The notes below the pieces were generated by a model. The model saw only the letters and a program-made list of their open reading frames with translations, was not told where the DNA came from and did not search any database. This document shows positions 7,794-64,000 of a stretch of DNA of 64,000 nucleotides, one piece after another. Numbering within the stretch: position 1 is the first letter of the stretch; every line of letters begins with the position of its first letter. The translations under genes and the position numbers were made by a program. The stretch comes from Flavobacteriales bacterium (GTDB lineage: Bacteria; Bacteroidota; Bacteroidia; Palsa-965): the NCBI GenBank assembly GCA_040377305.1, contig JBEIPA010000004.1:186615-250614 (forward strand), given 5' to 3'.

Positions 7794-8285
7794 TTAACGC
7801 GCCGGCTGTTTTATCGGAATCGCTATTCCTTTCTCGTTAAGCTGCTCATCATTCACCGAATCAAGGTCGACGAATTCGAATTGCACGTGGCTGTAGTACA
7901 CTTTGCCCAGCGCTTTCCGAATGGATTCCAAATCCACTTTTGCGAAATCTCTTGATCGCAGCCCGACAAAAAAGCTGGTTTGGTCTGCGCGCTCCAGAAA
8001 TTTTATTTCTGTAATTCCCAGTGAATCGCAATCAAGTCCGGCGAATACTTTTCTGAAGTTGATAATGTCGGTTTGAAGCATGGCCGGGCCTTCAATGTGA
8101 TGTTCCTTATCTGTTTCTCTTTTTTTGAAAAACACATAAACATATCGCGCAGCCGCAAGTGCAATAATTACGACGAGGTATTTTCCGATGCCCCAGCCGG
8201 TTTCTTTCAGGAGCATGGCGCTCACGAGTAATGTTAGAAACAGGGCAACTACAAACGCGAGGGCGGCGAGAAGATATTTCAGCAT
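7794..8285 (-). CDS. Hypothetical membrane protein (two N-terminal TM helices)
   Basis: 163-aa ORF with hydrophobic N-terminus. Confidence 0.7.
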   Translation of the reverse strand: MLKYLLAALAFVVALFLTLLVSAMLLKETGWGIGKYLVVIIALAAARYVYVFFKKRETDKEHHIEGPAMLQTDIINFRKVFAGLDCDSLGITEIKFLERADQTSFFVGLRSRDFAKVDLESIRKALGKVYYSHVQFEFVDLDSVNDEQLNEKGIAIPIKQPAR

Positions 8286-31786: not shown

Positions 31787-33736
31787 GTGAAAACCCATAT
31801 TCGCACCCCGTTTTTTCTTGGCATTTTTCTTATCCTGATTCAACTGACGTCTTTCGCTCAGCAGAAAGCAAAGATTGACTCTTTGCTGGAAGTAGCTGAA
31901 GATGCGGAAACAGATTCTGCTGCCGCGAACACTTACCGAAAGCTTTTCAACGCATTTGTTGTGTCGGACATGGACAGCGCAGAAATTTTTCTCGCGCTTG
32001 AGATGGAATATGCAACCAAATCGGGCAAACCCACACTGATTGCCGACGCGAATGAGGACTATGCGCGGATCGCCTGGCAGAGAAACAAAATGCCGGAAGC
32101 GCTGGGTTATCTTCAAACAACATTGAGCCTGCGGGAAAAGGTTGGCGATCAGAAATCCATTGCCAACTGCGAGAACAACATCGGCATCATTTACTGGAAC
32201 ATGAAGAACAGCGATGAGGCCCTGAAGCACTATCGCAAATCAATGGCTATGCGCATGCAATTGAATGACTCTGCAGGAATGGCCGCCTCTTACGGTAACA
32301 TGGGGTTGATTTTTCGGGAGTCAGGTAAAGCCGACAGCGCAGATCTTTATTACCGACGCTCCACGCAACTCCGGGAAATTCTAGGTGATCAGCAGGCCCT
32401 CGCAATCGCGTACAGCAACATGGCCATTCTGTACATCACAAGCGATCCCGATTCAGCTATTCTCTACACCGAGAAATCAATGGCCGCACACAAAGCGTTC
32501 AACGATATGTACGGCTATGCAGGTTGTCTGAACAACCTGGGCGTTGCTTATCGCAACAAAGGACTACTTGAGAAAGCAGAAGAGGCACAAAAAGAAGCTG
32601 CACGCCTGAGCATTGAGCTCGACAACAAAGAGGTCATGAAAAATGCATTCGGCGAACTTGCTTCTATCAATGCCGAGAAAGGAAACTACGCGGAGGCGTA
32701 TCGGTATTTCAATCTGAAAGATTCCTTAAAGGATCTTATCTATAACGAAAATATTTCACAGCAGGTAACCGAAGCCGGAGCGAAATACGAATCGGAGAAG
32801 AAGCAACACGAGAACGATCAACTCAAGGCCGATGCCGAAGAAGATGCAATGCTGAATAAATTTCTGATTGCACTCGCGTTACTTGGAGCGATCGTAACGG
32901 GATCGTTGTTCTACGCATATCGCAACAAGCGCAAATCGAATCAGCAACTCGCATTGCAGAATGCACAGATTGAATCGCAGAAGAAGGAAATTACGGACAG
33001 CATCAACTATGCACAGCGAATTCAACAGGCTATTCTTCCGCCGGAGACTACACTGAAGAAGCATTTTCCCGATTCATTCGTTTTCTACTTGCCGAAGGCA
33101 ATTGTGAGTGGCGATTTCTGGTGGATGCTTGAGAAAGACAATTATGTTTTCGTTGGTATTGCCGATTGCACGGGACACGGTGTACCGGGTGCATTCATGA
33201 GCATGCTCGGCATGGAAATGCTCAACGATATTGCACGTGAAACATCAGAGCCATCAGAAATTCTTGCGCGATTGAGTTCTGCAATCAAGCGCTCGTTGCG
33301 ACAAACCTCGGCAGAAACACAGAGCCGCGACGGAATGGACATAGCACTTCTGCGTTTTAATCTCAACACGCGCGAGCTCGTTTATGCCGGAGCAAATCGC
33401 CCGTTGTGGATTCGTAAAGCAAGTGGCGATGTGGTGGAACTCTCTGCAACGAAAGCTCCAATCGGTGGTCCCGCCGACGACTCTCAGCAATATGAATCGC
33501 ATAAAATTGCATTAGCAACGGGAGACACACTTTATGCTTTCACCGACGGATACGCAGATCAGTTCGGTGGCACAAAAGGCAAAAAACTAAAGACATCGGG
33601 AATGCGGGGGCTATTGGAACAGCACGCAATGCTACCTATGGTATTGCAGGAGCAAGAACTCTCGGCACACTTCCATCGCTGGCGCGGGAATCTCGAGCAG
33701 GTTGATGATGTGCTCGTTTGCGGAATCAGAATTTAA
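31787..33736 (+). CDS. Membrane TPR-sensor SpoIIE/PP2C-type phosphatase
   Basis: Signal peptide, TPR repeats, TM helix; SGDFWW, ADCTGHGVPGAFMS, DGMD, TDGYADQFGG and DDV motifs. Confidence 0.92.
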   Translation: MKTHIRTPFFLGIFLILIQLTSFAQQKAKIDSLLEVAEDAETDSAAANTYRKLFNAFVVSDMDSAEIFLALEMEYATKSGKPTLIADANEDYARIAWQRNKMPEALGYLQTTLSLREKVGDQKSIANCENNIGIIYWNMKNSDEALKHYRKSMAMRMQLNDSAGMAASYGNMGLIFRESGKADSADLYYRRSTQLREILGDQQALAIAYSNMAILYITSDPDSAILYTEKSMAAHKAFNDMYGYAGCLNNLGVAYRNKGLLEKAEEAQKEAARLSIELDNKEVMKNAFGELASINAEKGNYAEAYRYFNLKDSLKDLIYNENISQQVTEAGAKYESEKKQHENDQLKADAEEDAMLNKFLIALALLGAIVTGSLFYAYRNKRKSNQQLALQNAQIESQKKEITDSINYAQRIQQAILPPETTLKKHFPDSFVFYLPKAIVSGDFWWMLEKDNYVFVGIADCTGHGVPGAFMSMLGMEMLNDIARETSEPSEILARLSSAIKRSLRQTSAETQSRDGMDIALLRFNLNTRELVYAGANRPLWIRKASGDVVELSATKAPIGGPADDSQQYESHKIALATGDTLYAFTDGYADQFGGTKGKKLKTSGMRGLLEQHAMLPMVLQEQELSAHFHRWRGNLEQVDDVLVCGIRI

Positions 33737-33794
33737 CTTTCTCCAACCGCGGGATATGAACCCACGCGACGGAAGAAATTTCCCTTCACGTTTC

Positions 33795-33827
33795 GACTGC
33801 CTACTGCCCTACTGCTTACTGCCTACT
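33795..33827. repeat. Heptamer tandem repeat (CTGCCTA-like); related arrays at 30797-30878 and 53682-53726
   Basis: GACTGCCTACTGCCCTACTGCTTACTGCCTACT. Confidence 0.7.
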
Positions 33828-33990
33828 AGTATTTCTGCTTCTTCTTCCACTTCTTCGTCTTCTTTCCAAAGTCGTGATTCCCCGCAATAAGTTTCTTGTT
33901 GTTGTTCTGTGCTTTTTTGCATTGGCTCTGACAACTTCCCAGTGAGAGCGAGAGCACAAAAAATCCAGCGAGCGTGAGGTAGCGTAGCAT
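33826..33990 (-). CDS. Small basic lipoprotein (54 aa), absent from the ORF track
   Basis: MLRYLTLAGFFVLSLSLGSCQSQCKKAQNNNKKLIAGNHDFGKKTKKWKKKQKY*; lipobox LGSC. Confidence 0.7.
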   Translation of the reverse strand: MLRYLTLAGFFVLSLSLGSCQSQCKKAQNNNKKLIAGNHDFGKKTKKWKKKQKY

Positions 33991-34207
33991 TGGGGCCGCG
34001 TTTATTTTTCTAACGTAAATCTGCGAAAGAAATTGTTAAAAATGAGCTACGTATTTCAGGTGGTTTTAACATATGTAAATTGCGACTGCCTACAGTATGT
34101 GTGGAATGTTTGTGACAGAAGCATCTTTTAACAAACTTCCCTTAGTAAGACCCGTATCAGCTATAGCGAACGGCGTTATTAACACGTAAATTTGTTTGAT
34201 AGGCCCA

Positions 34208-37200
34208 ATGGAAAACAAGAGCACATACACCACACTGATTAGTAAACTTGACGAGTTCATTCGCAAGTACTACAAGAATCAACTCATTCGTGGTTCATTG
34301 TATACAGTGGCGATTGTTCTCGCAGGCTATCTAACAATTTCTCTTCTTGAATATTTCGCGCACTTCGATTCAATAGTTCGTACGGTTTTGTTCTGGTCTT
34401 TCCTTGCAGCAACAGCTTACGTGGTCGGAAAATTCATTGTGTTGCCATTGACAAAAATCAATCGCATCGGAAAAATTATTTCCCACGAACAAGCGGCAGA
34501 AATCATTGGGCGTCACTTCGGAAACGTGCAGGATAAATTGCTCAACGTTTTGCAGCTTCAGAAAACAGGAAGCGGAACCGGCGCAAGCAATGCACTTGTT
34601 GAAGCGAGCATCAATCAGCGCATCAGCGAACTCCGACCGGTTCCATTTACTTCGGCGATTGATCTTAAGCAAAACCGCAGATATGTAAAGTGGGCGTTGA
34701 TTCCGCTGCTCGCAATTGTGGTCATTGTTTTCACGAATGCAAATCTTCTCACAGAGAGTGCGAATCGTTTGGTGAACCACTCCGACTACTTCGAGGAACA
34801 AGCGCCATTCACTTTCAATATTCAAAACTCGCTTGAAGCCATTGAAAATGAGGACTTTACCCTCGACCTGAAAATGACCGGCGCCGAAGTTCCTGCGAAT
34901 GTGGTCCTGCTTGTCGATGGTAACGAGTACACCATGAGTCGTGAGAACACAATCGATTTCAGTTATGTGTTCCGCAACGTTCAGGGAGAAAAGACATTCC
35001 GCTTCTTCGCCGATGGATTTACTTCGAAAGAGTACATCCTGAAAGTTCTTCCGAATCCAATCGTACTCAACTTCGATGCGGAACTCAAGTATCCTGCTTA
35101 CACCGGGAAGAAAAACGAAACTGTTCGCAACACGGGCGATCTTGTTGTTCCTGCCGGTACTGTTATTAACTGGAATTTCTCAACGCGCTCTACCAATGCG
35201 TTTGTGATGAAATTCATTGACAGCACATACAAACTCGGTCAGGTTGGCGAAGACCGTTTTGAATTCACCAAGAAAGTACTCGAGAGCGAGCGCTACTCCT
35301 TACACACTTCAAATCAATTTCTGAAGGGGAAAGATTCAATCGACTACACCATCAGCGTTGTTCCCGATTTATATCCGGCAATTTCTGTCGAGGAGAAGAA
35401 AGATTCTATCTCCCGCCTCCGCCTCTACTTCACCGGAGAAGTAAAAGACGACTATGGTTTCTCGCGTTTGCAGTTTACTTACCGTCCGCTCAACAAGAAA
35501 GATTCTCTGGGCAACGATGTTGATCCTACCACACAATTTGTAACAATTCCTGTAAGAACAAACCTTGTACGCGACCAGTTCTATTACTTCTGGGATCTTT
35601 CTGCTCTTGGAATTGAAAGCGGAGATGAGATTGAGTACTACTTCGAAGTGTGGGACAATGATGCCGTGCACGGTGCAAAATCTACCCGTTCGCAACGGAT
35701 GATTTTCAAAGCGCCAACGGCGAAGGATCTTGCAAACATGAACGATTCTGCAAACGCGCAGATTGAAAAAGACCTGGAAGCAGCCCTCGAAGAATCGCGT
35801 ATGCTTCAGGAGGACATCGACAAGCTTCACCAGCAGATTCTCGAGAAGAAAAATGTAGGTTGGGAAGAAAAGCAAAAGCTGGATCAGCTTAAGACAAAAC
35901 AAGCCGCACTGCAACAGCGCATTGATCAGCTGAAGCAGCGCAACGCACAGAACCAACAACAACAACAGGAATTCAACCAGCAGGATCCAGAGCGCCAGCA
36001 GGAGATGGACGATCTCTTTAATCAGCTTTCTACCGAGGAAATTGAGAAGATGATTAAGAAGATGGAGGACTTGCAGAAGAATCCGAAAAAGGACGAAACG
36101 CAGAAGGCCCTCGAAGAGGCGAAGAAAGATCAGGAGAACACGGAGAAAGACCTTGATCGTACACTTGAGCAATTCCGTGAAATGCAGTTCCGCCAAAAGC
36201 TGGACGATGCAATTCAGAAACTTGATACACTGCAGAAGCAACAACAGGAACTCGCTAATCAATCGGAGCAAAAGAATCTGAGCAAGAAGGAGAAGGAGCA
36301 GATTGCAGCAAAACAAGACAGCCTGAATAAGGAGTTTAACGAATTGCGAAATGAACTCGATAAGGTTGATTCAATCAACCAGAAACTCGAAGAGCCACAC
36401 GAAATGCCGAATACGGATCTCAAGGAAATGGAGATTCAGAAAGATCAACGCGACGCCTCCAAAGAGATGAAAGACGGTGGCGATCCTAAAGAGGGCTCAG
36501 ACAAACAGCAAGACGCTTCAGATAAAATGGAGCAAATGGCTCAAAGCCTAAAGGAAGCCCAGGAAAGTATGGACAAGGAAGAGAACGCGGAAGATGTTCA
36601 GACAGTCCGCACCCTTCTCGACAATCTACTCCAGCTCTCATTTGATCAGGAAGCACTGAAGGATAAAGTGAAACAGACAGGCACGTCCGATCCGCAATAT
36701 CCTGCATTGGCACGCGAGCAAAATCGTTTACGTGATAATGCGCGCATGATCGAAGACTCATTGCTCGCTTTGACCAAGCGCAATCCACAGATCTCTCCAT
36801 TAGTAAATAAGGAAATCACGAACATCAACTTCAACATGGATCAATCCATACGGAAGTTGTCGGATCGTGAAACCGGCGAAGCGCAGAATGTTCAGCAACG
36901 TGCAATGACTTCCATCAACACACTTGCGTTGATGTTGAACGAATCGCTTGAGAACATGATGATGCAAATGAACCCGAAGAATCAGGGCGAGCCTAAAGAC
37001 TGTAAGGGAGGAAACTGCAAAAAGCCAGGCAATGGAAAGCCTAAGCCCGGATCAGGAGCTAAACCCGGAAAGCAAGGAAACAAGCCGGGCATGAGCGGCA
37101 TTCGTCAGCGTCAGGAAAAGTTGAATCAGCAAATGCGTAACGCCAAAGAGAAAGGTCAAAACGGCCAGGGTGGCGCAAGCGCGGAAGAGCTCGCGAAGAT

Positions 37201-37594
37201 GGCTGCCGAACAAGAGCAGATTCGTCGCCTAATGCAAGAGTCATTACAGGACACCGAGAACGATGGAGGCGGAACACCGGGCGGAGATGCTGCGGACAAA
37301 ATGGAAGAGACCGAAGAGGATCTCGTGAACAAGAACATCAATGCAGAAACCCTCGAGAGACAGCAACAGATTCTGGATAAGATGCTCGAGTTCGAAAAGG
37401 CAGAACAACAACGTGAGCAAGACGAACAACGTCAGGCGAACGAGGCGAAAAATTATGAATTAAGTAACCCTAACGGCTTTTCGGAGTATAACAGACAGAA
37501 ACAGCAAGAAGCTGAACTGTTGAGGACCGTTCCACCGGCGCTAGTGCCGTACTACAAGAACAAGGTCAACATGTACTTCAGCGGTGTTGAGTAA
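34208..37594 (+). CDS. DUF4175-like large membrane-anchored coiled-coil protein
   Basis: N-terminal TM helices, Ig-like middle (DDYGF, VWDND), long Q/E/K coiled coil; start moved to ATG 34208. Confidence 0.85.
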   Translation: MENKSTYTTLISKLDEFIRKYYKNQLIRGSLYTVAIVLAGYLTISLLEYFAHFDSIVRTVLFWSFLAATAYVVGKFIVLPLTKINRIGKIISHEQAAEIIGRHFGNVQDKLLNVLQLQKTGSGTGASNALVEASINQRISELRPVPFTSAIDLKQNRRYVKWALIPLLAIVVIVFTNANLLTESANRLVNHSDYFEEQAPFTFNIQNSLEAIENEDFTLDLKMTGAEVPANVVLLVDGNEYTMSRENTIDFSYVFRNVQGEKTFRFFADGFTSKEYILKVLPNPIVLNFDAELKYPAYTGKKNETVRNTGDLVVPAGTVINWNFSTRSTNAFVMKFIDSTYKLGQVGEDRFEFTKKVLESERYSLHTSNQFLKGKDSIDYTISVVPDLYPAISVEEKKDSISRLRLYFTGEVKDDYGFSRLQFTYRPLNKKDSLGNDVDPTTQFVTIPVRTNLVRDQFYYFWDLSALGIESGDEIEYYFEVWDNDAVHGAKSTRSQRMIFKAPTAKDLANMNDSANAQIEKDLEAALEESRMLQEDIDKLHQQILEKKNVGWEEKQKLDQLKTKQAALQQRIDQLKQRNAQNQQQQQEFNQQDPERQQEMDDLFNQLSTEEIEKMIKKMEDLQKNPKKDETQKALEEAKKDQENTEKDLDRTLEQFREMQFRQKLDDAIQKLDTLQKQQQELANQSEQKNLSKKEKEQIAAKQDSLNKEFNELRNELDKVDSINQKLEEPHEMPNTDLKEMEIQKDQRDASKEMKDGGDPKEGSDKQQDASDKMEQMAQSLKEAQESMDKEENAEDVQTVRTLLDNLLQLSFDQEALKDKVKQTGTSDPQYPALAREQNRLRDNARMIEDSLLALTKRNPQISPLVNKEITNINFNMDQSIRKLSDRETGEAQNVQQRAMTSINTLALMLNESLENMMMQMNPKNQGEPKDCKGGNCKKPGNGKPKPGSGAKPGKQGNKPGMSGIRQRQEKLNQQMRNAKEKGQNGQGGASAEELAKMAAEQEQIRRLMQESLQDTENDGGGTPGGDAADKMEETEEDLVNKNINAETLERQQQILDKMLEFEKAEQQREQDEQRQANEAKNYELSNPNGFSEYNRQKQQEAELLRTVPPALVPYYKNKVNMYFSGVE

Positions 37595-37595
37595 C

Positions 37596-38024
37596 ATGAC
37601 CCCCTTAGAAGAAATGATCCGGGAACAAAAAATTTCGTTTCCATCTGCGTCAGGAAATATTGTAATCGTAGAGAAGCTTATTAACGACATCTGTACTTCG
37701 TACCAGGTATCAGAAGATTACTACGGTAACATTCTGGTTGCGGTGACGGAAGCGGTTAATAACGCAATGCAACACGGCAACAAGCTTGATCCTAGCAAGA
37801 AGGTGGACGTTGAGTTTAAAGCAGGCGAAGAATCAATCACCTTCCTTGTACACGATCAAGGCGACGGCTTTGACTACAACACCCTCCCCGACCCTACCAA
37901 TCCGGAGAATCTCGAGAAGCCAAGTGGCCGTGGAGTTTTCCTGATGCGTCACCTCGCCGACAAAGTGGAATTCTCTGATGACGGCCGTACGGTGCACCTC
38001 AACTTCAGCGTATCTGCCAACTAA
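37596..38024 (+). CDS. RsbW-like anti-sigma/Ser kinase (HATPase_c_2)
   Basis: EAVNNAMQHGN, DQGDGF and GRGVFLM motifs. Confidence 0.9.
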   Translation: MTPLEEMIREQKISFPSASGNIVIVEKLINDICTSYQVSEDYYGNILVAVTEAVNNAMQHGNKLDPSKKVDVEFKAGEESITFLVHDQGDGFDYNTLPDPTNPENLEKPSGRGVFLMRHLADKVEFSDDGRTVHLNFSVSAN

Positions 38025-38027
38025 TGT

Positions 38028-38459
38028 ATGCCTACTGAAAGCATACTCTTTTTCTCAGACGGAATCCAATTCACATTACGCGACAAGGCGAAAGTGCGCT
38101 CTTGGTTAAAGCGCGTTGCTGCATCACACAAGAAGAATATTATTGAGCTGAACTACGTGTTTGTTTCGGACAGCAAACTTTATGAAATGAATCAGCAGTT
38201 TCTGTCTCACAACACCCTTACTGATATTATCACATTCCCTAATAGCGCTCCCAAAGGGTCTGTCTCTGGAGAAATTTTCATTAGCGTTGATCGTGTTAAG
38301 GACAACGCAACCGAATTCAGGCAATCATTCAAAGACGAATTGTGTCGTGTTATGGCACATGGTTTGTTGCACTTGTGCGGTTTCATAGACAAGGCGGAAA
38401 AGGATCAACGCGTCATGAGGAGCCAGGAAGAAAAAGCACTAGATTTACGTTCATTCTAA
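38028..38459 (+). CDS. ybeY: rRNA maturation endoribonuclease YbeY
   Basis: TDIITF, GEIFIS and HGLLHLCGF motifs. Confidence 0.93.
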   Translation: MPTESILFFSDGIQFTLRDKAKVRSWLKRVAASHKKNIIELNYVFVSDSKLYEMNQQFLSHNTLTDIITFPNSAPKGSVSGEIFISVDRVKDNATEFRQSFKDELCRVMAHGLLHLCGFIDKAEKDQRVMRSQEEKALDLRSF

Positions 38460-38505
38460 AAACCGCGTTGCGGTTCACGAATTCAAAAAATTAAAATAGA
38501 GACCA

Positions 38506-38970
38506 ATGAGTAAAACATTTTTAACTCTCGTTTTGTGTGCATCGCTCACGGCTGCATTTGCTCAAACTTCTAAGCCGGCCCCTGCGCCTGCTCCAGCGCC
38601 GACAACAGCTCAGTCTGCTCCTACTCTTTCAGCAAAGCAAAAGACGCTATGCAAGACGTGGAAGTTCACGGGCAGCGAATCTTTCGACCTGCCACAACCA
38701 CCCACAGAAGTTCAGAAGAATGACATCCTTAATCTCCAGGAAGGCGGGCGCTATCGTTTGATCCTTGACGGCGTTGCTGAAGGAGGAACATGGACTGTTG
38801 ATGCAAATTGTAAGTGGATCACGATGACAAGCGACGCTGGGGTAGTTAAGAAGTTCCAGGTTCTTGCTCAAACAGACGGATCATTGAAAGTGGACTACCG
38901 GGACGGTGATGGAACGCACAATGTGCTATTGTATGCTCCGGAAGGCAAAGCGGCTCCTGCAAATAAGTAA
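38506..38970 (+). CDS. Exported hypothetical protein, lipocalin-like
   Basis: Signal peptide, Pro/Ala linker, LCKTWK...GTW pattern. Confidence 0.7.
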   Translation: MSKTFLTLVLCASLTAAFAQTSKPAPAPAPAPTTAQSAPTLSAKQKTLCKTWKFTGSESFDLPQPPTEVQKNDILNLQEGGRYRLILDGVAEGGTWTVDANCKWITMTSDAGVVKKFQVLAQTDGSLKVDYRDGDGTHNVLLYAPEGKAAPANK

Positions 38971-39004
38971 ACAGAATTCGGGTTTTTACCCGCAAAGATA
39001 TCGC

Positions 39005-39043
39005 GCCCCGTCTCGTCAACATTTTGATGATACGGGGCTTTTT
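39005..39043 (+). terminator. Intrinsic terminator
   Basis: GCCCCGT/ACGGGGC stem plus T run. Confidence 0.65.
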
Positions 39044-39050
39044 CTTGTCT

Positions 39051-39066
39051 TGTTCCACGTGGAACG
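39051..39066. promoter_or_regulatory. parS-like site
   Basis: TGTTCCACGTGGAACG compared with consensus TGTTNCACGTGAAACA. Confidence 0.75.
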
Positions 39067-39157
39067 ACATGGAAGTCGCTTAGGCTTTTCCGTTATAAAG
39101 GAACCTAGTTGGGACAAGACTTGACTGGCCTACTTAGGAACTTACTACCTTTGTCAA

Positions 39158-41029
39158 ATGTCAGTGCTAGAAGATTATGATGTAATTGTGGTGGGTGCCG
39201 GTCATGCCGGTTGTGAGGCAGCTGCAGCAGCGGCGAATCTCGGATCTAAAACCCTTTTGGTAACAATGAATATGCAGACCATCGCCCAGATGAGCTGCAA
39301 TCCCGCAATGGGAGGTGTTGCCAAGGGACAAATTGTTCGGGAGATAGATGCATTGGGCGGATATTCGGGGATTGTAACAGATAAGACTGCGATTCAGTTC
39401 CGGATGCTTAACCGCTCTAAAGGTCCTGCGATGTGGAGTCCGCGTGCTCAATCAGATCGTTGGCGCTTTGCTGAAGAGTGGCGTTTAATGCTTGAGCGAA
39501 TTCCTAATTTGGATTTCTGGCAGGACATGATTTCCGGACTTCTTATTGAAGATGGCAAGTTGTGTGGTGTCGTTACCAGTATGGGGCTTGAGGTTCGGGG
39601 AAAGGCTGTGGTACTTACGAATGGAACCTTCCTGAATGGGAAGATTCATATTGGAGAGAAGAATTTTGGCGGAGGCAGAACAGGGGAGAAGGCAGCTACT
39701 GGAATTACCGAGCAACTTGTTAGTCTGGGCTTCGAAAGTGGTCGCATGAAAACCGGAACGCCGCCCCGGGTTGATGGCCGATCACTGGATTATTCTAAGA
39801 TGGAAGAGCAGCCAGGAGATGAGATCTGTGAGAAGTTTTCTTATTCTTCTGAAACCAGAAACTTAGAAAAGCAGCGCCCTTGCCATATCACTTACACGAA
39901 CGAGGCGGTGCATGAAATCCTGAAAACGGGATTCGAAAAGTCGCCTATGTATGCAGGCCGTATCGAAGGATTAGGTCCCCGATATTGCCCTTCCATTGAA
40001 GATAAGATTACACGATTTGCAGAACGAACCCGTCACCAGATTTTCGTTGAACCTGAGGGCTGGGATACGGTTGAAGTCTACGTAAATGGCTTCTCAACGT
40101 CCCTGCCTGAGGATGTCCAAATAAAGGCTTTAAAGTTGATTCCCGGTTTTGAGAATGTAAAGATGTTCCGACCTGGGTACGCGATCGAGTATGACTATTT
40201 TCCGCCTACACAATTGGACAACACGCTACAAACGAAACTAGTGAAAGGCTTGTATTTCGCTGGACAGATTAACGGAACAACGGGTTACGAAGAAGCGGCA
40301 TGTCAAGGATTGATGGCTGGCATAAATGCCCATTTGCAGGTTGCAGGACGGGCGCCTTTTACGCTTTCCCGATCTGAGGCATATATTGGGGTTCTGATTG
40401 ATGATCTTATCACAAAAGGAACTGAAGAGCCATATCGGATGTTTACGTCGCGTGCAGAATATAGAATATTGCTGCGCCAGGACAATGCCGATATCCGTTT
40501 GACTCCACTTGGACACAAACTTGGTTTGGCTTCCGATTCGCGTCTGAAACGAGTGGAGGAGAAGATTGCAAATGCGAATGCCATTATCAAATTCTTCCGC
40601 GATCAATCTGTTACTCCTGAAGAAGCAAACGGGTTTCTGAATTCAATTGATTCGGCACCAATCACACAAAAGGTAAAGCTCACATCTGTGTTGTCACGAC
40701 CGAATATTTCGATTTGGGATATGATTTCTGTTAGCCAGCCAGCTAAGGAATTCCTTTCCAAATATGGCAAGGAAGACATTGAGCAAGCTGAAATCAAGAT
40801 AAAGTACGAAGGTTATATCCAACGCGAATCTGAACTTGCAGACAAGATGCTGCGTCTGGATCACGTGGCTTTGGACGAGGACATGAACTACCATCAACTT
40901 GCTTCACTATCCAAGGAGGCAAAAGAGAAGCTTACCAGGATGCGCCCAACTTCTTTAGGACAAGCATCGCGCATCAGCGGCATTTCACCGGCTGATATTT
41001 CCGTATTGATGATTTACGTAGGCCGCTAG
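39158..41029 (+). CDS. mnmG: tRNA uridine-5-carboxymethylaminomethyl(34) synthesis enzyme MnmG/GidA
   Basis: [37 protein letters not shown] and [13 protein letters not shown] motifs. Confidence 0.98.
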
Positions 41030-41049
41030 AGCCCATTGTTGTTTTCTTG

Positions 41050-41084
41050 AAAGGGCGTTGAGTTTAGTACTCAACGCCCTTTTT
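41050..41084. terminator. Bidirectional intrinsic terminator after mnmG
   Basis: AAAGGGCGTTGAGT/ACTCAACGCCCTTT 14-bp stem. Confidence 0.85.
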
Positions 41085-41105
41085 CGGCTTTCCACTGCTC
41101 CAAAC

Positions 41106-41121
41106 TGTTTCACATGGAACA
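41106..41121. promoter_or_regulatory. parS-like site
   Basis: TGTTTCACATGGAACA. Confidence 0.7.
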
Positions 41122-41275
41122 AGTACAATCGGACTTGAGAGCTGAACTATTCTTGATTCGTGAAAACGTACACAATTCCAGAAACATATATTTAGAAATA
41201 TCGTAAACAATATGAAGCACAAATAGTTACGACTATTCGGTGGCACTTCTACAGATCATATTATGCCACAAAACA

Positions 41276-41291
41276 TGTTTCACGTGGAACA
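41276..41291. promoter_or_regulatory. parS site
   Basis: TGTTTCACGTGGAACA, followed by DnaA-box-like TGTGGAAAT and TGTGAATAA. Confidence 0.85.
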
Positions 41292-41389
41292 TGTGGAAAT
41301 TGTGAATAAAATGTGCGTCAATTGAAGCATTAATAAGTCTGTAATCGACGATAAATCAGTATACTTGTATACTAATTAAACCGTATTGT

Positions 41390-58177: not shown

Positions 58178-58321
58178 TTACCAAAAACCCTCATTTTCAT
58201 CAAGCGAAAAACGCCAAAAGATTTCAACATTACAAGTGAGTTTTCAAGGGCTTGGATAAGGTATGAACAAACTGTTAACACCAATGAAAACCAGCCTCTT
58301 CCGTGGATATATTTGATCTCT

Positions 58322-59719
58322 ATGGAGCAATTATCACTTATTCCGCCGGCGTTACGCACCTCCAGGCCCCTTCACTTCCCAAAAATTCTTCGCGAACGAT
58401 ACAATTTGCTCGTTCCGCGTCAGGAAGATGGTTTGATTGTGCTTGCTATTTTCCAGAAGGTTCGTGCCGGAATCATTGAGCGTTCTTTTCCCGAGCGCAT
58501 CATTGTCGACACAATCAAGCAAGTGCTCAACGAGCTCGGACAAGGTTCGCAGCGCGGAGAAGAAACGCAGAAGTACGATGAAACTATTCACCGTCTGCTG
58601 CGCCACTTCATTGACAAGAACATCGAAGACAAATCTTATCAGCTCAGCACGTACGGAGAGAATTTCTGCGACATGCTCGAGCGTGAAGTGCATACTGCGA
58701 TCAATCCTTCGCAGATCCAGAAAACGTTCAATGACCTCGTGATGCTTCTCGCGCTCAAGCTGGAGAGCCTCGAAGATTTTCGTCACTGGTACCTCACGCA
58801 GTTCTTCAAACACAAAGCCGACATCAGCGCACAGCTCCGCGCACTTCAGGCGCAGATTGAAGATACAGTTGACCAGCTGAATGATCTCGTGAAGAATGAG
58901 CACGACAACTTCCGCGAAATGCTGATTGGCTGTGAAGCACTTCTCGATCGCATCAAGGAGCAGGCGGATAAACTTTCAAGTGCGTTCTCTTCGAAAGACG
59001 ACATCAAGCAATTGATGGACGATGCAGATCTCGGAGTTGAATTCGAATTCCGCGAAATGAAACGTGATGTACGCGGTTACTTCAAGGATATTGAAGGCCG
59101 ACTCATCAACGTGTCACACACGATTGACCGCATCAAACCGAAAGTAAACAAGCTCTACAACGATTTCGAGAAACGCGATTACGACCGGAAAATTGAATCG
59201 TTCCTGATCTACATGCTGAAAAACTCTTCGAGCAAATTCTTTCGCACGAAGAAACTGAAAGACCGCAAAGTTCACGAAGTAGAAGTTTTTCTGCCGAAGA
59301 ACATCCGCGAGAAGGACCTGTACAGCGATCGTTCGCGTATTACGGGCATTGATTACATGCAGTTGCTCGAACCACCTCCGATAACATTGCAAACGCTCAC
59401 GTGGGATCAGGATGATCTTTCCCGTCAGGCAGATTTGCGTCGCCAGTATCTCGCGCGTGAGAAACGCATTGAAGATTGGTTCAACATTATCACGGCAGAC
59501 ATCGAGAAGAAAAAGGAGATCAACTTCTCGGATTATTACTACCAGATCATGTACAAAGACAATGATTTTGAAGAAGCAATCAAGGAAGCAACGTTAGTGC
59601 TCAAAGAGTTCACGAAGAATCCGAATTACGAAGTAACAGTTAGCGAAGAATTTAACCTTGATCCAAAACACCCGCACATCGGAATATGGAAAATGCAAGT
59701 AAAAAGTATAGCTTCCTAG
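58322..59719 (+). CDS. mksF: MukF/MksF/JetA-like kleisin subunit
   Basis: First gene of the SMC operon; N-terminal winged helix (YQLSTYG), helical middle, C-terminal domain; start moved to ATG 58322 after TATATTTG. Confidence 0.7.
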   Translation: MEQLSLIPPALRTSRPLHFPKILRERYNLLVPRQEDGLIVLAIFQKVRAGIIERSFPERIIVDTIKQVLNELGQGSQRGEETQKYDETIHRLLRHFIDKNIEDKSYQLSTYGENFCDMLEREVHTAINPSQIQKTFNDLVMLLALKLESLEDFRHWYLTQFFKHKADISAQLRALQAQIEDTVDQLNDLVKNEHDNFREMLIGCEALLDRIKEQADKLSSAFSSKDDIKQLMDDADLGVEFEFREMKRDVRGYFKDIEGRLINVSHTIDRIKPKVNKLYNDFEKRDYDRKIESFLIYMLKNSSSKFFRTKKLKDRKVHEVEVFLPKNIREKDLYSDRSRITGIDYMQLLEPPPITLQTLTWDQDDLSRQADLRRQYLAREKRIEDWFNIITADIEKKKEINFSDYYYQIMYKDNDFEEAIKEATLVLKEFTKNPNYEVTVSEEFNLDPKHPHIGIWKMQVKSIAS

Positions 59720-60384
59720 AGACAGACGAAGCAGAAGCGTTGTTCGCCGAGGTGGACTTCATGTTCAAGAGCGGCCAGCACATTCAGAATTATCCGCACC
59801 AGGTTGAGATGTTCAACTTCGTGGACAAGTTCGAGGAAGAGTTGCGTTTGTACTACCGGAATCTGTTCAAAGTGAATCTTTCCGGAAAAGGTTCCGACTA
59901 TTCGCGTTATTTCTATCTCGAGATGGACGAAGATACACGCGGAATTGTGAAGACGCGCGCGAAGAAACTGACTCCTGAGCACACGCTGCTTGGAATTCTT
60001 TTGCTGAAGATTCACCGCATCGACAAGTACTTCATCAACGATATTTATGTTCCCGATTTCATTCAGCTTCTGAAGACGAATGAAGAGTACAAGAACTTTA
60101 TCTACAATCTCTTTGCACGTCGTCGTGAGAAAGAAGCAACAGAGATTGATGAGAACACCATTGATGAATGGGTTCGCAACTCACTGAAAGAGTTTGAGCG
60201 TCTCGGATGGATTCATTTCGATCCGCGTAACAAAGAACTCTTTGAGATCATGCCTTCGATTGAGCGCCTCTTCACGATGTACTCATACGAAATTCACAAC
60301 ATCGACCGTCTCATCGATGAAACAAATTCCATCGAAGAGAAAACAGGAGGATTGTATCCTGTTGAAGAAGGCGACAGCGAATAA
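59686..60384 (+). CDS. mksE: MukE/MksE/JetB-like KITE subunit
   Basis: LFAEVDFMFKSGQHI, YFYL and VRNSLKEFERLGWI align by eye with MukE LFPALDSALRSGRHI, FFYL and VRSSLNRLRRLGMV. Confidence 0.8.
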   Translation: MENASKKYSFLETDEAEALFAEVDFMFKSGQHIQNYPHQVEMFNFVDKFEEELRLYYRNLFKVNLSGKGSDYSRYFYLEMDEDTRGIVKTRAKKLTPEHTLLGILLLKIHRIDKYFINDIYVPDFIQLLKTNEEYKNFIYNLFARRREKEATEIDENTIDEWVRNSLKEFERLGWIHFDPRNKELFEIMPSIERLFTMYSYEIHNIDRLIDETNSIEEKTGGLYPVEEGDSE

Positions 60385-60406
60385 TTCACGCATCTAGAAA
60401 AGCGAT

Positions 60407-63400
60407 ATGAAACAATACCCTAGAATATTTTCCCTTTCCACAGTTGGTGTAATTTATCACAACAACTGCGATTACCTGATGCACCCGCTTCGTACCGACT
60501 TCACTGGAGGTTCGGGTTCGGGCAAATCAGTTATCGCCGATCTTCTCCAGCTCATCTTTGTAGCGAAGAAAGAGTTCTGGGAATCGGGAACGGACGTAAT
60601 GACCACCGAGAAACGTACTGTAGAAGGCGTTGTTCTCAAGCAAGGCGGCGATCAGGGCCAAGGCTACTTCGGTTACGCATTTGCGAACGTCGAAGTGGAG
60701 AAAGGCAAATACATCATCGTTGGAACACACATTCAGACAAATGCACGTTCGGTGTTTCCTTTCATCATTCAGAAAGGACACAACTTTGAGTCGGAGCAGG
60801 AAATGAATCTCGAACCTTGCGACAGCTTCCTGTTGTACCGCGATTTTCTTCCAGGCAATCAGATTCTTCCAATCGATAAGATGCGTGAGAATTTCGAGAA
60901 GCGTGGTTACATCATGAAACAGTACAACCAACGTACTGCTGAGTTCCACCGCATTCTGTATAACAACCAGATTCTGTCAACGGATTTCAGTAACGACGAT
61001 AAGAAGCTGAAGACGTTTGCACAGATTCTCCAGTCATTCGCTCGTGGTAAGGGTGTTGGTGCGAAATCAGAAGACCTGAAAAACTTCTTGTTCGCAAATG
61101 ACGATGACCAGAACAAAGAGTACGAAAAGCGCAAGAAAGAAATCGAAGAAGCTCACGAAGAATACAAGCGTCGTGCGCGCGTGTATGAAACAGTGAAGCT
61201 GAAAAAAGATCGCCTCTTGTCGTTGCTCGAAGACAAAAAGAAACGCGACACAGCATTACACCGCGCATTGCTGACAGAAACCGGCTGGGCATTCCAGCAA
61301 CGTGAAGTGATCGGAAAAGATCTCATTCGCACGCAGAAGGAAACGGCTCACGTGAATTTGCAGCAGATCCAGTTGGAGACTCGTGTGAATGATCTCAACA
61401 TGGAAGCCGTAGAGCGTGAGCTTGATAGTATAACCGGGGAGCGTGAACGTCTCGAAACAGAATTAGAGAACCGCAAAAAGCAGCGCGACTTCGCTGAGAA
61501 GAACCGTTCAAGTTATGAGAAGGCATACACCATTTCACAGAACGACTACGACGATGCAAGCGCGAAGTGGAGCAAAGTGCGTGCAGCTGAATTGTGGATC
61601 AAAGCCTACAAGACGGTTGATTTACTGAAGGAAGAATTCCGCAAGCAGGATGGAATGCTGAAAGAGCGCCAGAAACTTCGCGAGTTTGTTGACTTCATGA
61701 CGCGTAAGCATATCACGGAGCAGTTCGAAACTTCTTCCTGGTCGCGCGACTACAGAATGGCGCAAGCTGAGTATGACGGAATCATGGATCAATTGGATTC
61801 ACAGATTACGCGTCTCGAAGAAATCATGCCGTTGTTCGATAAAGACAACAAAGATTCAGTAGTTCAGTGGGCGATTCGCAATGCAGGAAAGCTTTCGAAG
61901 GAAGAAGAATCTGTTCTCATGCATTTCAAAACTCTGGGCACGAAAAAGCCGGGAGAGAAATCAGACGGCGAGCGATACATTCCTGATCCGGAAGCAGTTT
62001 ACAAAAACCTGAAGCCGGTCGACAAAGACACCAAAGGATTCTGGGTGAACATGGGCGGCGTTATGGAGTACGTAACGTACGTTCAGAAGCAGATGTTCAA
62101 CAATCCGGACACGATTGAGAAAGAGTTGCAGAAGTACGGCAACACGATTGAGATTGAGCTGAAGAAATTACATGCTGATCGTTTTGAGCAGCGCATGCTT
62201 CGCGATCACCTCATGGAGTTTGGATTCAACACTTCTGTATCTGATGCATGGCTGAAGCGGGAAGAGCTGGAGGCGTTTGTGCCGGATGATTCATTGGTGA
62301 TGTCGAAGGACGAGTTTGAAATGATTCTCGATTTGTATTCGAACCCGAAGAGCAATCTGCGTGTTCAGTACGACGAAGCGAAGAAGAACTGGGAAGACGC
62401 ATTGCAAAAGCTTCGTGAGGCAGATGATATCATCTCGAACTCTCAAGGCGGATTGCTTGCGATTGAAGGACAAATCAAACAGCTTGATACTACACAGCTT
62501 CCGGAGAAGGAACGCGAACTCAAAAATTTCCAGGCTACACGCAAAGGTCTCGAAGAACGATTCGCTGACTGGAAGAAGGACGTTGCAACATATCTGAAAG
62601 AAGACGAAGGCGAGAAGTCGCTCGAGAAAGTGAACAAAGAAATTCGCGAGATCGAGAAAGAACACGGTTCGAGCACGAAGATGCTGTACAACGCATTTAC
62701 ACAGCGCTTGCAGGACATTTCACGTCGCCAGGGATCGCTTGAACAGCGTTTGATCGGATTGATGGAACAGATGCCTGCGTTGGAGAATCGTTACCAGGAA
62801 GTGCTCGCACGTTATACACAAGTGATCGGCGAATTCAAGCCGGATGAAATTGTGGACAACGTTGAAGAATCGCAGGTAAACAAACTGAAGGTAACAGTGA
62901 TCACTACTCAGAAATCTTTCGAGTCGAACTTCGAAGGAATTCTGAAAGACGAGAAGTTCAACATTGATGATGAGCGATTGAAAGGAAATCACAAATACGA
63001 TTTCCAGACACTTGCAGAAGTTATGTTGCCGAAGATCATTGTGAATCCGGATCGCGTAGAAGAAGATCTTGCGAGTGATATCGAAGAACATCTGAAGAGT
63101 ATCAACCAGAAGATGAACGAGATCAACGATCACAAGCTCAAGATCATCAATGGTATCTTCTCGAAAATTGAAGAAGTATACACGGAGTACCGCGATCGTA
63201 TCGACGACATGCGCGAGTTCTTCCGTTCGAATAAGATTTCCGGTGGGCACTATGTAGAGATCAACTTCGATCCGTCGAAGTCGTATCCAATCAGCTGGAT
63301 CCGTTCACTGAACAAACAGATTGCGGCGAAAGCGCAGAACATTGGATTGTTCAAGATGTTTGAAAACGAAGGAGAAGGTGCAGATGCAATTATCCTGAAA

Positions 63401-63901
63401 GCGTTCCTCGAGCATAGTGATGGCAAAAACGTGAAGCCCGATATCCGCAAGCTCACGAATCCGAAATCATACTTCGATCTTTCAATCAGCCTCAAAACTC
63501 CGAAAGGAGAAGATGCTCCGGGATCGAACGGTCAGAACTACACGATGCTTGCGCTTCTGTGTATTGCACGACTCTCAATCATCGACAGCGATCGTTTGAG
63601 CCGCAAAGACAGAAAGATCCGCAAAGGTGTTCGCTTCATGACCATCGATGAGGTAGCGGGTCTTGGTGAAAACTTCGACATGCTGTACGAGCTCGCCAAG
63701 AATTACGATTACCAGATTCTCACGATGACGATCGATCCGATTGGTCGTTTCGAAGAGGGCAAGCAGAATATCTACACGTTGCGTAAGAACAACAATCCGG
63801 AGTTCCACAATATCAATCCAACTCCTCTTGCACAGTTCAGTTACGACAACATTGTAGAGCATCTTGACGATTATATTCATGCGCTTCAAACGCAGAATTA
63901 A
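60407..63901 (+). CDS. mksB: MukB/MksB/JetC-like SMC ATPase
   Basis: N-terminal Walker A GGSGSGKS, two long coiled coils around a central hinge-like region, signature GSNGQ, Walker B FMTIDE. Confidence 0.88.
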   Translation: MKQYPRIFSLSTVGVIYHNNCDYLMHPLRTDFTGGSGSGKSVIADLLQLIFVAKKEFWESGTDVMTTEKRTVEGVVLKQGGDQGQGYFGYAFANVEVEKGKYIIVGTHIQTNARSVFPFIIQKGHNFESEQEMNLEPCDSFLLYRDFLPGNQILPIDKMRENFEKRGYIMKQYNQRTAEFHRILYNNQILSTDFSNDDKKLKTFAQILQSFARGKGVGAKSEDLKNFLFANDDDQNKEYEKRKKEIEEAHEEYKRRARVYETVKLKKDRLLSLLEDKKKRDTALHRALLTETGWAFQQREVIGKDLIRTQKETAHVNLQQIQLETRVNDLNMEAVERELDSITGERERLETELENRKKQRDFAEKNRSSYEKAYTISQNDYDDASAKWSKVRAAELWIKAYKTVDLLKEEFRKQDGMLKERQKLREFVDFMTRKHITEQFETSSWSRDYRMAQAEYDGIMDQLDSQITRLEEIMPLFDKDNKDSVVQWAIRNAGKLSKEEESVLMHFKTLGTKKPGEKSDGERYIPDPEAVYKNLKPVDKDTKGFWVNMGGVMEYVTYVQKQMFNNPDTIEKELQKYGNTIEIELKKLHADRFEQRMLRDHLMEFGFNTSVSDAWLKREELEAFVPDDSLVMSKDEFEMILDLYSNPKSNLRVQYDEAKKNWEDALQKLREADDIISNSQGGLLAIEGQIKQLDTTQLPEKERELKNFQATRKGLEERFADWKKDVATYLKEDEGEKSLEKVNKEIREIEKEHGSSTKMLYNAFTQRLQDISRRQGSLEQRLIGLMEQMPALENRYQEVLARYTQVIGEFKPDEIVDNVEESQVNKLKVTVITTQKSFESNFEGILKDEKFNIDDERLKGNHKYDFQTLAEVMLPKIIVNPDRVEEDLASDIEEHLKSINQKMNEINDHKLKIINGIFSKIEEVYTEYRDRIDDMREFFRSNKISGGHYVEINFDPSKSYPISWIRSLNKQIAAKAQNIGLFKMFENEGEGADAIILKAFLEHSDGKNVKPDIRKLTNPKSYFDLSISLKTPKGEDAPGSNGQNYTMLALLCIARLSIIDSDRLSRKDRKIRKGVRFMTIDEVAGLGENFDMLYELAKNYDYQILTMTIDPIGRFEEGKQNIYTLRKNNNPEFHNINPTPLAQFSYDNIVEHLDDYIHALQTQN

Positions 63902-63943
63902 GAGTGCGTAGTTTCCGTGTAATAGCGGAAGGTTTAAGTTGCG

Positions 63944-63980
63944 AAAGTCGGGTGTTGTGACCCGGCTTTTTTTTTTTTTT
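63944..63980 (+). terminator. Intrinsic terminator after the SMC gene
   Basis: AAAGTCGGGT/ACCCGGCTTT stem plus long T run. Confidence 0.75.
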
Positions 63981-64000
63981 AGGGGCGGGAAAAAAAAAAA

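Follow-up and report, generated by a model that had tools for sequence, protein, structure and literature searches.

What becomes of an anti-plasmid motor once it has lost its nuclease, and could it act as the condensin of a lineage in which Smc is not found? The question is raised by a three-gene operon, encoding a kleisin, a KITE protein and a structural maintenance of chromosomes (SMC) ATPase, near the end of a 64,000-nucleotide stretch of a Flavobacteriales bacterium genome (assembly GCA_040377305.1, contig JBEIPA010000004.1, positions 186,615 to 250,614, forward strand); we call this whole stretch the window. The evidence supports kinship of the operon, itself nuclease-free, with a mobile family of four-gene Wadjet-group systems, and we lean toward the view that it is a disarmed motor of this group that would have been kept for loop extrusion on the chromosome. 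A first-pass annotation had proposed a domesticated, nuclease-free Wadjet relative serving as housekeeping condensin. The first part of that proposal stands: the operon is such a relative, it is fixed across its order, and neither Smc nor the nuclease of the family is found there. The second part, the housekeeping role, we infer, with loop extrusion, a function in segregation and control by DnaA read across from MukBEF and MksBEF.

The operon and its three proteins

The genes lie on the + strand in the order kleisin, KITE, SMC, as the first-pass annotation had read them. The kleisin gene (58322..59719, 465 aa) is MukF/MksF-like by its open reading frame (ORF) and predicted-structure match, the KITE gene (59686..60384, 232 aa) is MksE/MukE-like by its Pfam matches, and the SMC ATPase gene (60407..63901, 1164 aa, signature SNGQN) is MukB/MksB-like by profile and motifs. 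An intrinsic terminator, with its stem at 63943..63970 on the + strand, follows 41 bp past the SMC stop. The gene upstream, encoding a DUF3137 protein, is divergent. Codon use is native-like, as had been claimed: among 835 genes the operon lies at the 88-94th percentile of the codon adaptation index and at the 97-99th percentile of G+C content at third codon positions.

The MukE-like character of the middle gene is borne out by two models, PF21980 MksE (64 bits, cut-off 27, E 2.8e-17) and PF04288 MukE (28.2 bits, cut-off 25, E 1.1e-6); its 30.7 bits against the NCBIfam MukE model fall far under the cut-off of 250. The kleisin scored over the cut-off with nothing in a Pfam search. Its structural model (predicted local distance difference test, pLDDT, 71) has MukF as first match in two structure searches, Foldseek (9gm7_C, E 3.1e-8) and VIA (3rpu_A, Z 15.4, root-mean-square deviation 15.0, 269 aligned). 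The SMC protein carries Walker A (GGSGSGKS) at residue 34, the GSNGQ signature noted earlier at residue 1039 and Walker B (TIDE) at residue 1079. For a family profile of 73 SMC sequences the best solved structure is the MukB head 3euj (E 2.1e-6), and PF04310 MukB is found on 20-42% of the members of its Atlas clusters. The signature itself is SNGQN in 11 of 11 members of clade A1, the tree clade of the window's operon. Of 47 four-gene relatives, 25 have STGQT, and MukB has STGEA. The PADLOC JetA, JetB and JetC models gave no match to the operon proteins at E up to 1, and the three motor genes of a four-gene relative (L349) likewise lack a PADLOC Jet match. Because of the KITE, kleisin-model and SMC-profile matches, the lack of a PADLOC Jet match and the missed MukE equivalog cut-off, we place the complex in the Wadjet/Mks group, on its MukBEF-like side; it is not MukBEF itself.

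Could the complex instead do a housekeeping job other than condensation, such as replication restart, repair or decatenase recruitment, and be dispensable for bulk folding? Some relatives are automatically annotated as SbcC/Rad50, the DnaA-like boxes described below would suit any replication-linked role, and lineages without a motor exist. We nevertheless consider this quite improbable. The SMC gene has beside it genes for a MukF-fold kleisin and for a MukE-type KITE, not for the phosphoesterase SbcD, and by-eye reading of the SMC translation found no CxxC hook; in both respects the operon differs from SbcCD/Rad50-Mre11.

Fixation without Smc and without the nuclease

How widely is the operon kept? 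A species-genome scan found 128 relatives, of which the best 80 were retained, 23 close and 57 distant. The close loci have 71-91% identity, three genes and shared housekeeping neighbours. The order of the window's host comprises one taxonomic family with three genera, and we searched its 26 genomes that are at least 85% complete; these counts include one unpublished genome, G012, without which they read 24/25 for the operon SMC, 0/25 for the nuclease and 0/25 for Smc. The operon SMC profile matches 25 of the 26 genomes. True loss in the remaining one, G023, was rejected: its kleisin is cut at a contig edge, and the absence is an assembly gap. The operon is thus fixed, not spread in the patchy manner of an island. 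Smc scores over its cut-off in none of the 26 genomes, vs 258 of 301 in a phylum sample. In the window's own genome (G000, 99.99% complete) ScpA, ScpB and the other Mks clades were not found, so that no intact smc-scpAB stands beside the operon, which is the only condensin-type complex found in this Smc-ScpAB-less genome.

The operon is also under strong purifying selection, the ratio of nonsynonymous to synonymous substitution rates (dN/dS) of its genes being 0.03-0.07 against four close relatives. In 18 genomes the SMC and RpoB trees have 6 supported splits in common (out of 11 and 9, respectively), with conflict over a single taxon; the operon genes mostly follow the species tree.

Is the nuclease truly missing? 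The window ends where its contig (C30) ends, so the sequence past the SMC terminator lay outside the sight of the first-pass annotation, which had stated that no nuclease lies upstream of the operon and that none would fit before the terminator. In relative L020 the end of C30 aligns to position 7870 and the start of contig C46 from position 7849, so that the two abut, and C46 opens with the genes usual 3' of the operon in relatives. For both reasons no gene is hidden in the gap, and the operon has no nuclease gene next to it. Long T and A runs occupy both contig ends (window 63960-64000; C46 1-120) and are probably the cause of the assembly break. A fourth-gene nuclease is present in 0 of the 23 close loci, 20 of which have at least 2.7 kb of nuclease-free downstream DNA. 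The terminator stands where the nuclease gene begins in four-gene relatives, and by-eye reading finds a hairpin and T-run after the SMC stop in most close loci.

Nor was a nuclease of this family found elsewhere in these genomes. Pfam JetD_C, not found in G000, was rejected as a sufficient test of absence because the nucleases of this family score under its cut-off, and a family profile was used instead. It matched none of the 26 order genomes (positive control 2/5). A search of G000 for a Toprim DxD motif, one that recovers every one of the 53 family nucleases, gave 5 matches, none of them scoring with the family profile. A tblastn search of a plasmid collection with the SMC head gave no match.

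These results bear on the possibility that the operon still serves defence or plasmid control, its motor sensing or sequestering small circular DNA without cutting or together with an unrelated effector elsewhere. The operon likely descends directly from a defence-island family; many Smc-less relatives lack a detectable motor, so that a chromosomal role is not obligatory; and the genome-wide nuclease searches left out the type II and III JetD models. The negative results with the family profile, JetD_C and the DxD motif tell against it, no neighbour is common to all close loci, and the operon is fixed and slowly evolving, in contrast to the patchy four-gene forms. In Corynebacterium glutamicum, moreover, MksG is needed for the plasmid effect, which mksG deletion abolishes (PMC10123090). 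We regard continued defence as unlikely.

Armed relatives and two nuclease-free clades

What did the operon descend from? The 57 distant loci (22-44% identity) carry a fourth gene in 53 cases, and the other 4 are cut inside the SMC gene. The fourth gene encodes 277-357 aa, and in 52 of 53 loci no more than 150 bp separate its start from the SMC stop. Its matches to JetD models are weak, the Toprim E and DxD residues are invariant in 48 of 48 aligned sequences, and its structural model (pLDDT 92.6) is closest to MksG 8b7f (E 2.2e-5) and JetD 7til. One of these loci, L056 (contig MKSF01000026.1), is listed as FEBG, with MksG as fourth gene, in Data S1 of PMC7617805. The distant loci with the nuclease are found within defence islands or conjugative transposons. 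Among 28 recurrent proteins encoded near them, 11 match defence models (Avs3/4, SIR2-HerA, AbiL, Gabija, Tiamat and type I Wadjet), and others are Tra/Mob proteins, a recombinase and a transposase. Armed, that is nuclease-bearing, copies occur in the named cultured genera Pedobacter, Chitinophaga, Flavobacterium and Marivirga. Because the PADLOC Jet models and the JetD_C cut-off miss this family, the four-gene form has probably been under-counted in defence surveys.

Some of these loci have peculiarities of their own. In two Hymenobacter loci (L083, L088) a type I Wadjet divergently adjoins the four-gene system. Broken or split SMC frames occur in six four-gene loci and one locus of the clade A2 described below (L046, L054, L067, L070, L076, L079, L140), and in 0 of the 23 close loci. 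Several unrelated ORFs separate the KITE and SMC genes in L070, L078 and L215.

Trees of the SMC head domain were built from 71 rows and then from 65, with 14 long-branch or near-duplicate rows taken out and 8 metagenome loci brought in. They contain two nuclease-free clades: A1 holds genera g1 and g160 plus genome G428, and A2 holds genus g159, of the same family as A1, together with families f5, f7, f8, f85 and f86. A single origin of all nuclease-free forms was rejected (approximately unbiased test, p-AU 3.9e-10). The sister of A1 is a group of 8 nuclease-bearing loci from a targeted metagenome scan (starred support 99). The A2 SMCs and their nuclease-bearing sisters (L139, L141-L143, L235-L237, L240-L241) have IIEE at Walker B, not IDE, with EE in 12 of 12 A2 rows. 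In G428, from a distant family, the A1-type kleisin and KITE genes (L320, 7282-9338) and the SMC gene (L321, 1503-5024) are mid-contig on separate contigs, which may reflect a split operon or a binning artefact.

The direction of change could in principle be the reverse, the three-gene form being an old MukBEF-like condensin from whose descendants the mobile relatives gained or regained a nuclease. When the tree is rooted with Escherichia coli MukB, a root on the A1 clade is not rejected (p-AU 0.43 and 0.41), and the best structural matches are MukF and MukB, not JetA and JetC. MukB is too distant, and its rooting alone is uninformative on the direction of nuclease loss for A1. The best tree nests A1 among nuclease-bearing groups, and the second nuclease-free clade is separate by the test just given. 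Moreover, four-gene forms are spread over many families, against two genera and one distant genome for A1, and the JetD/MksG proteins of other Wadjet types are homologues of the fourth-gene product. We judge an ancestral three-gene form very improbable.

Did the operon take over directly from Smc? In a family-balanced sample of the class, 29 of 260 genomes carry the protein family, 23 without and 6 with the nuclease, and none of the 29 is among the 54 Smc-bearing genomes (which include the unpublished G477). MksE matches occur in 77 of 206 Smc-less vs 6 of 54 Smc-bearing genomes, kin not being independent in these counts. The RpoB tree has a starred clade of 52 Smc-less genomes, among which are carriers of A1, of A2 and of other Mks clades as well as genomes that have none of these. 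The loss of Smc predates the A1 operon because A1 sits inside this clade, and a direct swap of Smc for the operon was rejected on the same ground. The nearest host relatives of A1 carry A2, which suggests displacement of one motor by another. The operon as the universal missing condensin of Bacteroidota was likewise rejected, real matches numbering 3 of 301 phylum genomes and 29 of 260 class genomes.

Two further sets of motors were also seen. A compact Mks clade has the order SMC (~885 aa), kleisin, KITE, with no common fourth gene in the stretches fetched (L205-L212, L218-L224, L229-L232; families f4, f9, f67, f91, f65, f74, f73, f78, f86 and f25); MksE matches are found in 6/6 genomes of f4, 7/8 of f9 and 8/8 of f67, all without Smc. 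In family f87, F-E-B operons of the DUF3584 type lack the fourth gene (L213-L215, L244), while L225, L226 and L228 have one of 284 aa (DUF7281 in L225); the f87 operons are likely a third case of loss.

Promoter, possible chromosomal role and known systems

Is there a sign of how the operon is controlled? The promoter and terminator were found where the first-pass annotation had put them. The element TAnnTTTG (TATATTTG, 58308..58315, + strand), which we take to be a Bacteroidota-type −7 promoter element, lies 14 nt before the ATG. Across the close loci it precedes the annotated start by 9-15 nt (19 of 19). The transcript is predicted to be leaderless or nearly so. Upstream lies a tandem direct repeat of two DnaA-box-like 9-mers with a 2-nt spacer (58261..58280, + strand), a putative regulator site. 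All 19 close loci whose upstream DNA is long enough have it, 46-47 nt upstream of TAnnTTTG, a count that is partly circular, the pattern having been derived there. Some copies are one base off the DnaA box. The repeat also occurs in 5 further A1 loci and in 2 of 11 A2 loci (one a perfect TTATCCACA), and in 0 of 33 four-gene loci and 0 of 8 nuclease-bearing sister loci. A genome-wide scan found no regulon for it. Binding of DnaA at this site is a lead only. Elsewhere in G000 an intergenic stretch (C4:66917-67210) has the densest cluster of relaxed 9-mers (7 copies) together with a tandem match; it is not an obvious origin.

The parS sites reported ~17 kb from the operon reappeared in a scan, which gave 6 matches with at most 3 mismatches vs 0.62 expected. 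Four of these six genome-wide sites fall at 33229-41291 of the window, and those at 41106..41291, upstream of the operon, include the nearest, 17 kb away. All five relatives tested that have an A1-type operon carry parS on the same contig as it, the nearest site being ~12-82 kb off. The candidate oriC ~43 kb away (~15.3-15.8 kb) was not confirmed: a canonical DnaA box occurs once in this AT-rich gap (63.5%). Another gap, 41030-41389, is as AT-rich (63.9%), GC skew is flat across the region, and dnaA lies on another contig than the operon. The gene before the 41030-41389 gap we take, from its start, to be mnmG. According to a figure legend in PMC12843772, the oriC of one Flavobacteriaceae strain lies at mnmG.

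We propose the following course of events. First, an ancestor long without Smc-ScpAB would have gained an F-E-B-G system. Second, G would have been lost, and the terminator would now close the transcript. Third, the kleisin-dimerised motor could load without sequence specificity and extrude chromosomal loops, helping compaction and segregation as do MukBEF and the MksBEF of Pseudomonas aeruginosa. Fourth, the A1 motor probably displaced another nuclease-free motor, of type A2, which persists in sister genera. Fifth, and weakest, the tandem boxes may couple transcription of the operon to DnaA and the replication cycle.

Several observations weigh against a kept chromosomal motor of this kind, as does the MukB rooting discussed above. 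Its hosts are all uncultured genomes, known from sequence alone, and the ScpA and ScpB searches cover G000 only. Smc-less lineages live without a detectable motor, because 129 of the 206 Smc-less class genomes lack an MksE match, which speaks against essentiality or hints at motors that escaped detection, and because no condensin was found in two Bacteroidetes (PMC10197239). The tandem repeat is missing in the basal A1 member G428 and upstream of dnaA, and it is not enriched genome-wide (19 matches vs 15 and 14 in shuffles). The main parS clusters lie on other contigs in 5 of 5 A2-type genomes. Finally, the SMC dN/dS of four-gene pairs is 0.14-0.16 in four and 0.064 in one (five measurable, two saturated), and the contrast with the operon is confounded, the pairs of higher dN/dS also having lower dS and one pair being as low.

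A broader reading is conceivable, which we hold only tentatively. Smc-less Bacteroidia may have repeatedly and independently made condensins of anti-plasmid Wadjet-group motors (at least two losses in this family, plus other Mks clades); these motors would displace one another, one being kept per lineage, and in this lineage a tandem box at the leaderless promoter would have put the motor under DnaA control. Such a history would repeat the origin proposed for MukBEF, this time with armed relatives that survive. The armed ancestors of MukBEF are too distant to compare, whereas this family exists today in both armed and disarmed form, so that the changes from plasmid sensor to chromosome organiser can be mapped and directly tested, armed copies being in cultured genera. 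The operon bears on the reported gap of some Bacteroidetes without a known condensin (PMC10197239), yet no member of its protein family was found in f12, a large family without Smc (0/22). As the only condensin-type complex found, fixed in a Smc-less order and with living armed sister loci, it is of more than routine interest.

How does the operon compare with known systems? From Smc-ScpAB it is set apart by an SMC protein far under the TIGR02168 cut-off (19.9 bits, cut-off 567) and by ScpA and ScpB not being found in G000. With Wadjet JetABCD/MksBEFG of types I-III it shares a superfamily, and its relatives carry the JetD-fold fourth gene in defence islands; it differs in having no nuclease and no PADLOC JetA/B/C match, and in being fixed among housekeeping genes. 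The MksBEF of P. aeruginosa backs up Smc-ScpAB (bioRxiv 2025.03.10.642339), whereas Smc is not found in this order, and a Pfam search gave no DUF3584 match in the operon proteins. The likeness to MukBEF of E. coli and related gamma-proteobacteria lies in gene order, MukF fold, MukE-type KITE, MukB-type head, the lack of a nuclease and standing as sole condensin-type complex found in a genome without Smc-ScpAB. It differs from MukBEF in its phylum, in SMC length (1164 vs 1486 aa), in signature (SNGQN vs STGEA), in missing the NCBIfam MukE cut-off by far, in having nuclease-bearing relatives that survive at up to 36-44% identity, and in being known from sequence alone. The partners of MukBEF are AcpP, MatP/matS and Topo IV.

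The closest published class is that of nuclease-less operons in the order F-E-B. None of the 93 FEB rows (of 869) in Data S1 is named as the window's lineage (Bürmann et al. 2025, PMC7617805). Going by the names, Chitinophaga dinghuensis, whose protein sizes are type-I-like, is the sole genuine member of Bacteroidota among these rows; the row 'Bacteroides pectinophilus' belongs to a Firmicute. The class is defined there by MksB of >890 aa with Walker motifs, MksF of 400-1200 aa and MksE of 150-800 aa. The operon has consecutive, co-directional mksF, mksE and mksB genes of 465, 232 and 1164 aa, with the Walker motifs and without MksG, and its four-gene relatives are tabled in the same source as FEBG. 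Nuclease-free Wadjet-group operons are thus already in print (PMC7617805, whose relevant passages do not treat fixation or Smc absence), as is the origin of MukBEF/MksBEF by Wadjet domestication, a stated, open hypothesis (PMC10586767, bioRxiv 2025.03.10.642339). We found no description of this lineage in the open-access literature. New here are the order-wide fixation in the absence of Smc, the sister loci that bear the nuclease, and a DnaA-box-like repeat conserved at the promoter.

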